A DNA stretch of 64,000 nucleotides from positions 5,078-69,077 of the forward strand of contig JACPAE010000004.1 of assembly GCA_016181005.1 (NCBI GenBank). Reading direction: 5' to 3'. The stretch itself is not shown here. This stretch comes from Candidatus Aenigmatarchaeota archaeon. GTDB taxonomy: Archaea; Aenigmatarchaeota; Aenigmatarchaeia; CG10238-14; SCSR01. Continued below: a report on this DNA, generated by a model with database tools.

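Novelty: BHB introns in archaeal protein-coding genes are rare; the classic case is cbf5 in Crenarchaeota. I am not aware of a doubly interrupted psmA.
How to check it: RT-PCR or RNA-seq across 57700-57950, looking for the junctions 57872|57838 and 57811|57778. Fold 57770-57885 with RNAfold or a BHB scanner. Identify which EndA architecture the genome encodes. Run tblastn of the spliced 228-aa product against relatives to see whether orthologs are colinear or carry introns at the same sites. Perform in-vitro cleavage of a transcript with recombinant splicing endonuclease.
What would refute it: Transcripts that are strictly colinear with the DNA with no spliced reads. Resequencing that shows the 33- and 32-nt segments are assembly artefacts. 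An intact second psmA elsewhere in the genome with this copy untranscribed (pseudogene).
Basis: partly seen in the sequence, partly recalled or inferred. Interest (0 to 1): 0.9.

Follow-up and report, generated by a model that had tools for sequence, protein, structure and literature searches.

Predicted exon structure of the psmA 5' end

The long proteasome ORF on the minus strand (57148-57633 from its first ATG) is open back to 57828 without the alpha-subunit N-terminus, while direct reading from ATG 57899 gives MGYDRTMAM and then TAA. Deletion of 57871-57839 (33 nt) and 57810-57779 (32 nt), as proposed in a sequence-only reading, yields a 687-nt ORF, whose product matches alpha subunits of solved archaeal structure over residues 2-221, gap-free across both junctions (E 3.5e-60 to 1e-53); coordinates and arithmetic of that proposal were correct.

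Proposed bulge-helix-bulge (BHB) introns of psmA, minus strand (H, 4-bp central helix; site a occurs in relatives)
57932-57900, intron z (33 nt): H GAAU/AUUC, bulges AU/U and AA/A, inner helix 7 bp
57871-57839, intron b: H CUAU/GUAG, bulges GU/A and AU/U, inner helix 10 bp, exon-exon helix 2 bp
57810-57779, intron c: H CCAG/CUGG, bulges GU/A and UU/A, inner helix 5 bp, exon-exon helix 2 bp

In introns b and c, the intron's last four paired bases form a helix with the four exon bases that immediately precede the splice site, and a cut following the second base of every bulge yields the in-frame junctions, so that the register advanced for both segments (4-bp H, 3-nt bulges, inner helix) holds. 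The motif class is relaxed HBh'. Such geometry is common by itself, a relaxed scan of 2 x 64 kb giving ~7000 matches; for one site and length fixed in advance, its chance is 1.4e-4 for an inner helix of at least 5 bp and ~1e-6 for at least 10 bp. Two exact coincidences with the junctions are therefore not attributable to chance.

Colinear, intronless relatives start with ATG CCN GAR ATH ATG CCN GAA TAY ATG GGN, differing mostly at third codon positions, with GGTGAT a few bases 5' of the start, and 5-9 residues precede (G/A)YDR in 77/77 colinear archaeal psmA loci. The same eight codons are present in the window at 57956-57933, with GGTGAT at 57967-57962, followed by a 33-nt gap (57932-57900) before ATG 57899. 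Because this segment again forms the motif, and its excision recreates GAA TAT/ATG GGT, psmA would contain three introns (z, b and c) and four exons of 24, 28, 28 and 631 nt, totaling 711 nt and 236 aa. The earlier count of two introns thus stands for b and c and falls short by z; ATG 57899, previously taken as the start, becomes Met9, and 687 nt is not the complete coding sequence. The gene resides in a Pop5-psmA-SBDS-Rrp4 superoperon of this Candidatus Aenigmatarchaeota (DPANN) genome. Upstream, a 12-codon ORF (57949-57987, minus strand; MRKFSALVICDA*) with its own GGTGAT overlaps the psmA start with its stop (ATGCCTGA), and the pattern M-x-K-x-x-(A/S)-LVIGDA* recurs in L001, L002, L012 and L106, psmA loci of the endonuclease type; this conservation may reflect only a conserved ribosome-binding region.

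Relatives, covariation and rival explanations

The psmA orthologs include colinear and intron-bearing loci. A colinear N-terminus is found in the close relatives L003, L004, L005, L007, L008 and L011, and 29-33-nt insertions at the same sites as in the window in L001, L002, L006 and L012; L021, L023, L103, L106 and L107 are further carriers. Scripted removal of each proposed intron set always returned a full-length protein of 229-239 aa. Homologous z introns are present in L001, L002, L103 and L106, with versions shifted by 2-3 nt in L012, L021 and L023, and a 7-9-nt exon separates introns a and b (or the shifted b') in each of L002, L012 and L106. The metagenome contig L012 harbors four mini-introns (z', a, b, c) within the first 27 psmA codons (~1385-1560), including a 9-nt exon, whereas its nearest relative L011, from the same metagenome, has none.

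The helices covary. Across five sequences, site b displays standard pairs in 97% of pair cells and both-side changes in 6/14 pairs, compared to 25-52% paired and 0-1 both-side-changed pairs when partners were slid by 1-3 columns. Its central helix tracks a synonymous exon change (GCU AUG with CUAU/GUAG, GCC AUG with CCAU/GUGG); at site a, Arg codon AGG to AGA is matched by intron C to U (GGAC/GUCC versus GAAC/GUUC), and the site c homologues of L012 and L103 exhibit A-U to G-C compensation.

Splicing of psmA is thus inferred from the restored reading frame, the register of the motif, helix covariation and the pattern of intron presence and absence. The alternatives, that the gaps are crossed by translational bypass, that the gene is a pseudogene, or that the segments are artefacts, are poor explanations considering the relatives' introns, the script-restored proteins and the covariation; the last is further opposed by six assemblies from different sequencing runs, all of which keep both segments (b and c) unchanged. 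The exact spliced proteins are absent from a 15-billion-protein collection.

Elsewhere in the window (21603-23446, minus strand), a PIN-domain ORF overlaps a secretion-type ATPase and KH ORF in a different frame. A mini-intron at the junction near 22937 was rejected since no inserted segment is present there; the ORFs look like one PIN-ATPase-KH gene with a single-base frameshift (FFTTDTIS / VPMAKRGKPG).

Splicing endonuclease and the LAGLIDADG gene

Relaxed HBh' motifs need a splicing endonuclease (EndA) with an extra loop (PMC5829648, PMC3239211). No EndA is encoded within the window. The EndA encoded at Aenigmatarchaeota locus L120 consists of a single N+C unit, and its best match is the alpha4 enzyme of M. 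jannaschii (1a79, E 1.4e-34). Just before the catalytic His it has a six-residue Lys-rich insertion (GVQLKKGPKSAKEH), which lines up with the alpha subunit of N. equitans. Of 71 EndA loci from members of the phylum other than the intron-bearing genomes, 70 conserve this insertion, which is compatible with, not proof of, broad specificity. At L120 830-4034, a distant LAGLIDADG homologue is convergent with and abuts endA, with a reverse-transcriptase ORF (PF00078) just upstream. A tRNA-Arg(UCU)-like gene in the window (39185-39275, plus strand), missed by ARAGORN and scoring 27.5 against the Rfam threshold of 29 bits, has a D-loop enlarged by ~15 bases (GCUCAGCCUGG-AUACGAAUAGCCAAAA-AGAGC), probably a non-canonical mini-intron; no BHB register fitted the gene.

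Directly upstream of psmA lies:
58012-59004, minus strand: LAGLIDADG ORF, 330 aa (PF14528)

Homologues share only 34-68% identity, yet the acidic residues of the motifs do not vary among them. The same ORF separates Pop5 and psmA in L001, L002, L021 and L023 and is absent in intronless relatives, and searching from the endonuclease alone recovered three more endonuclease-psmA loci (L103, L106, L107), all three with introns. Overall, introns occur in 8/8 endonuclease-adjacent psmA genes versus 2/87 without (Fisher 4e-10), and within the clade in 8/8 versus 2/16 (6e-5). L012 has introns without an endonuclease, retaining the endonuclease-type upstream flank. Its first 40 coding nt are identical to L002 (40/40; 31/40 to sister L011) and its intron a matches that of L002 at 30/31 positions, with the remaining gene 86-93% identical to L011; by these identities L012 psmA looks like a mosaic, with 5' 40 coding nt imported from an L002-like allele.

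Several neighboring features were also observed. A NUDIX hydrolase gene (59049-59594, minus strand) between Pop5 and the LAGLIDADG ORF is restricted to the window genome (0/11 related loci searched). The L002 genome has, besides the Pop5-psmA copy, a second LAGLIDADG-like stretch upstream of Pop5 (L105 2-700; 37% identical to the window's), and in Aenigmatarchaeota locus L119 the L18e-L13-S9 ribosomal protein genes lie between two different LAGLIDADG-type ORFs (2396-3172 and 4522-5448; one LAGLIDADG_3-like, the other LAGLIDADG_2 + HTH).

Proposed carB introns and comparison with known systems

A homologous LAGLIDADG ORF is also located directly upstream of the 5' end of carB, the carbamoyl-phosphate synthetase gene, in Woesearchaeota (L114) and Nanoarchaeota (L116).

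LAGLIDADG ORFs and BHB introns at carB (introns: H GGCG/CGCU, bulges AG/A and UA/U)
L114 2021-3256: LAGLIDADG ORF
L114 3297-3319: intron, 23 nt
L116 1964-3247: LAGLIDADG ORF
L116 3288-3309: intron, 22 nt

The introns sit ~20 codons in; removal restores KIGQAGE/FDYSGSQ, and the product aligns without gaps to solved carbamoyl-phosphate synthetases. Upstream of both endonuclease genes is a degenerate copy of carB's ~18 opening codons, which reads M..KPKKVLVLGSGS and ends in a stop.

In papers from 2009-2025 the known protein-gene BHB intron is that of crenarchaeal cbf5, with one Haloferax 5'UTR case added in 2020 (PMC7714728). Congruent with the novelty originally claimed, a full-text literature search returned no report of BHB introns in psmA, carB or DPANN protein genes, nor of such introns paired with free-standing LAGLIDADG genes. 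We consider it possible, if somewhat short of probable, that the pairing represents collaborative homing. Three points limit this reading: some of the pattern could stem from physical linkage, the four insertion sites, spread across ~60 nt, cannot share one target, and more distant endonuclease homologues have intact neighbors. The analogy is with cyanophage psbA, where the layout described as 'collaborative homing' (PMC6083498) matches that of a LAGLIDADG gene beside an intron-bearing psmA or carB.
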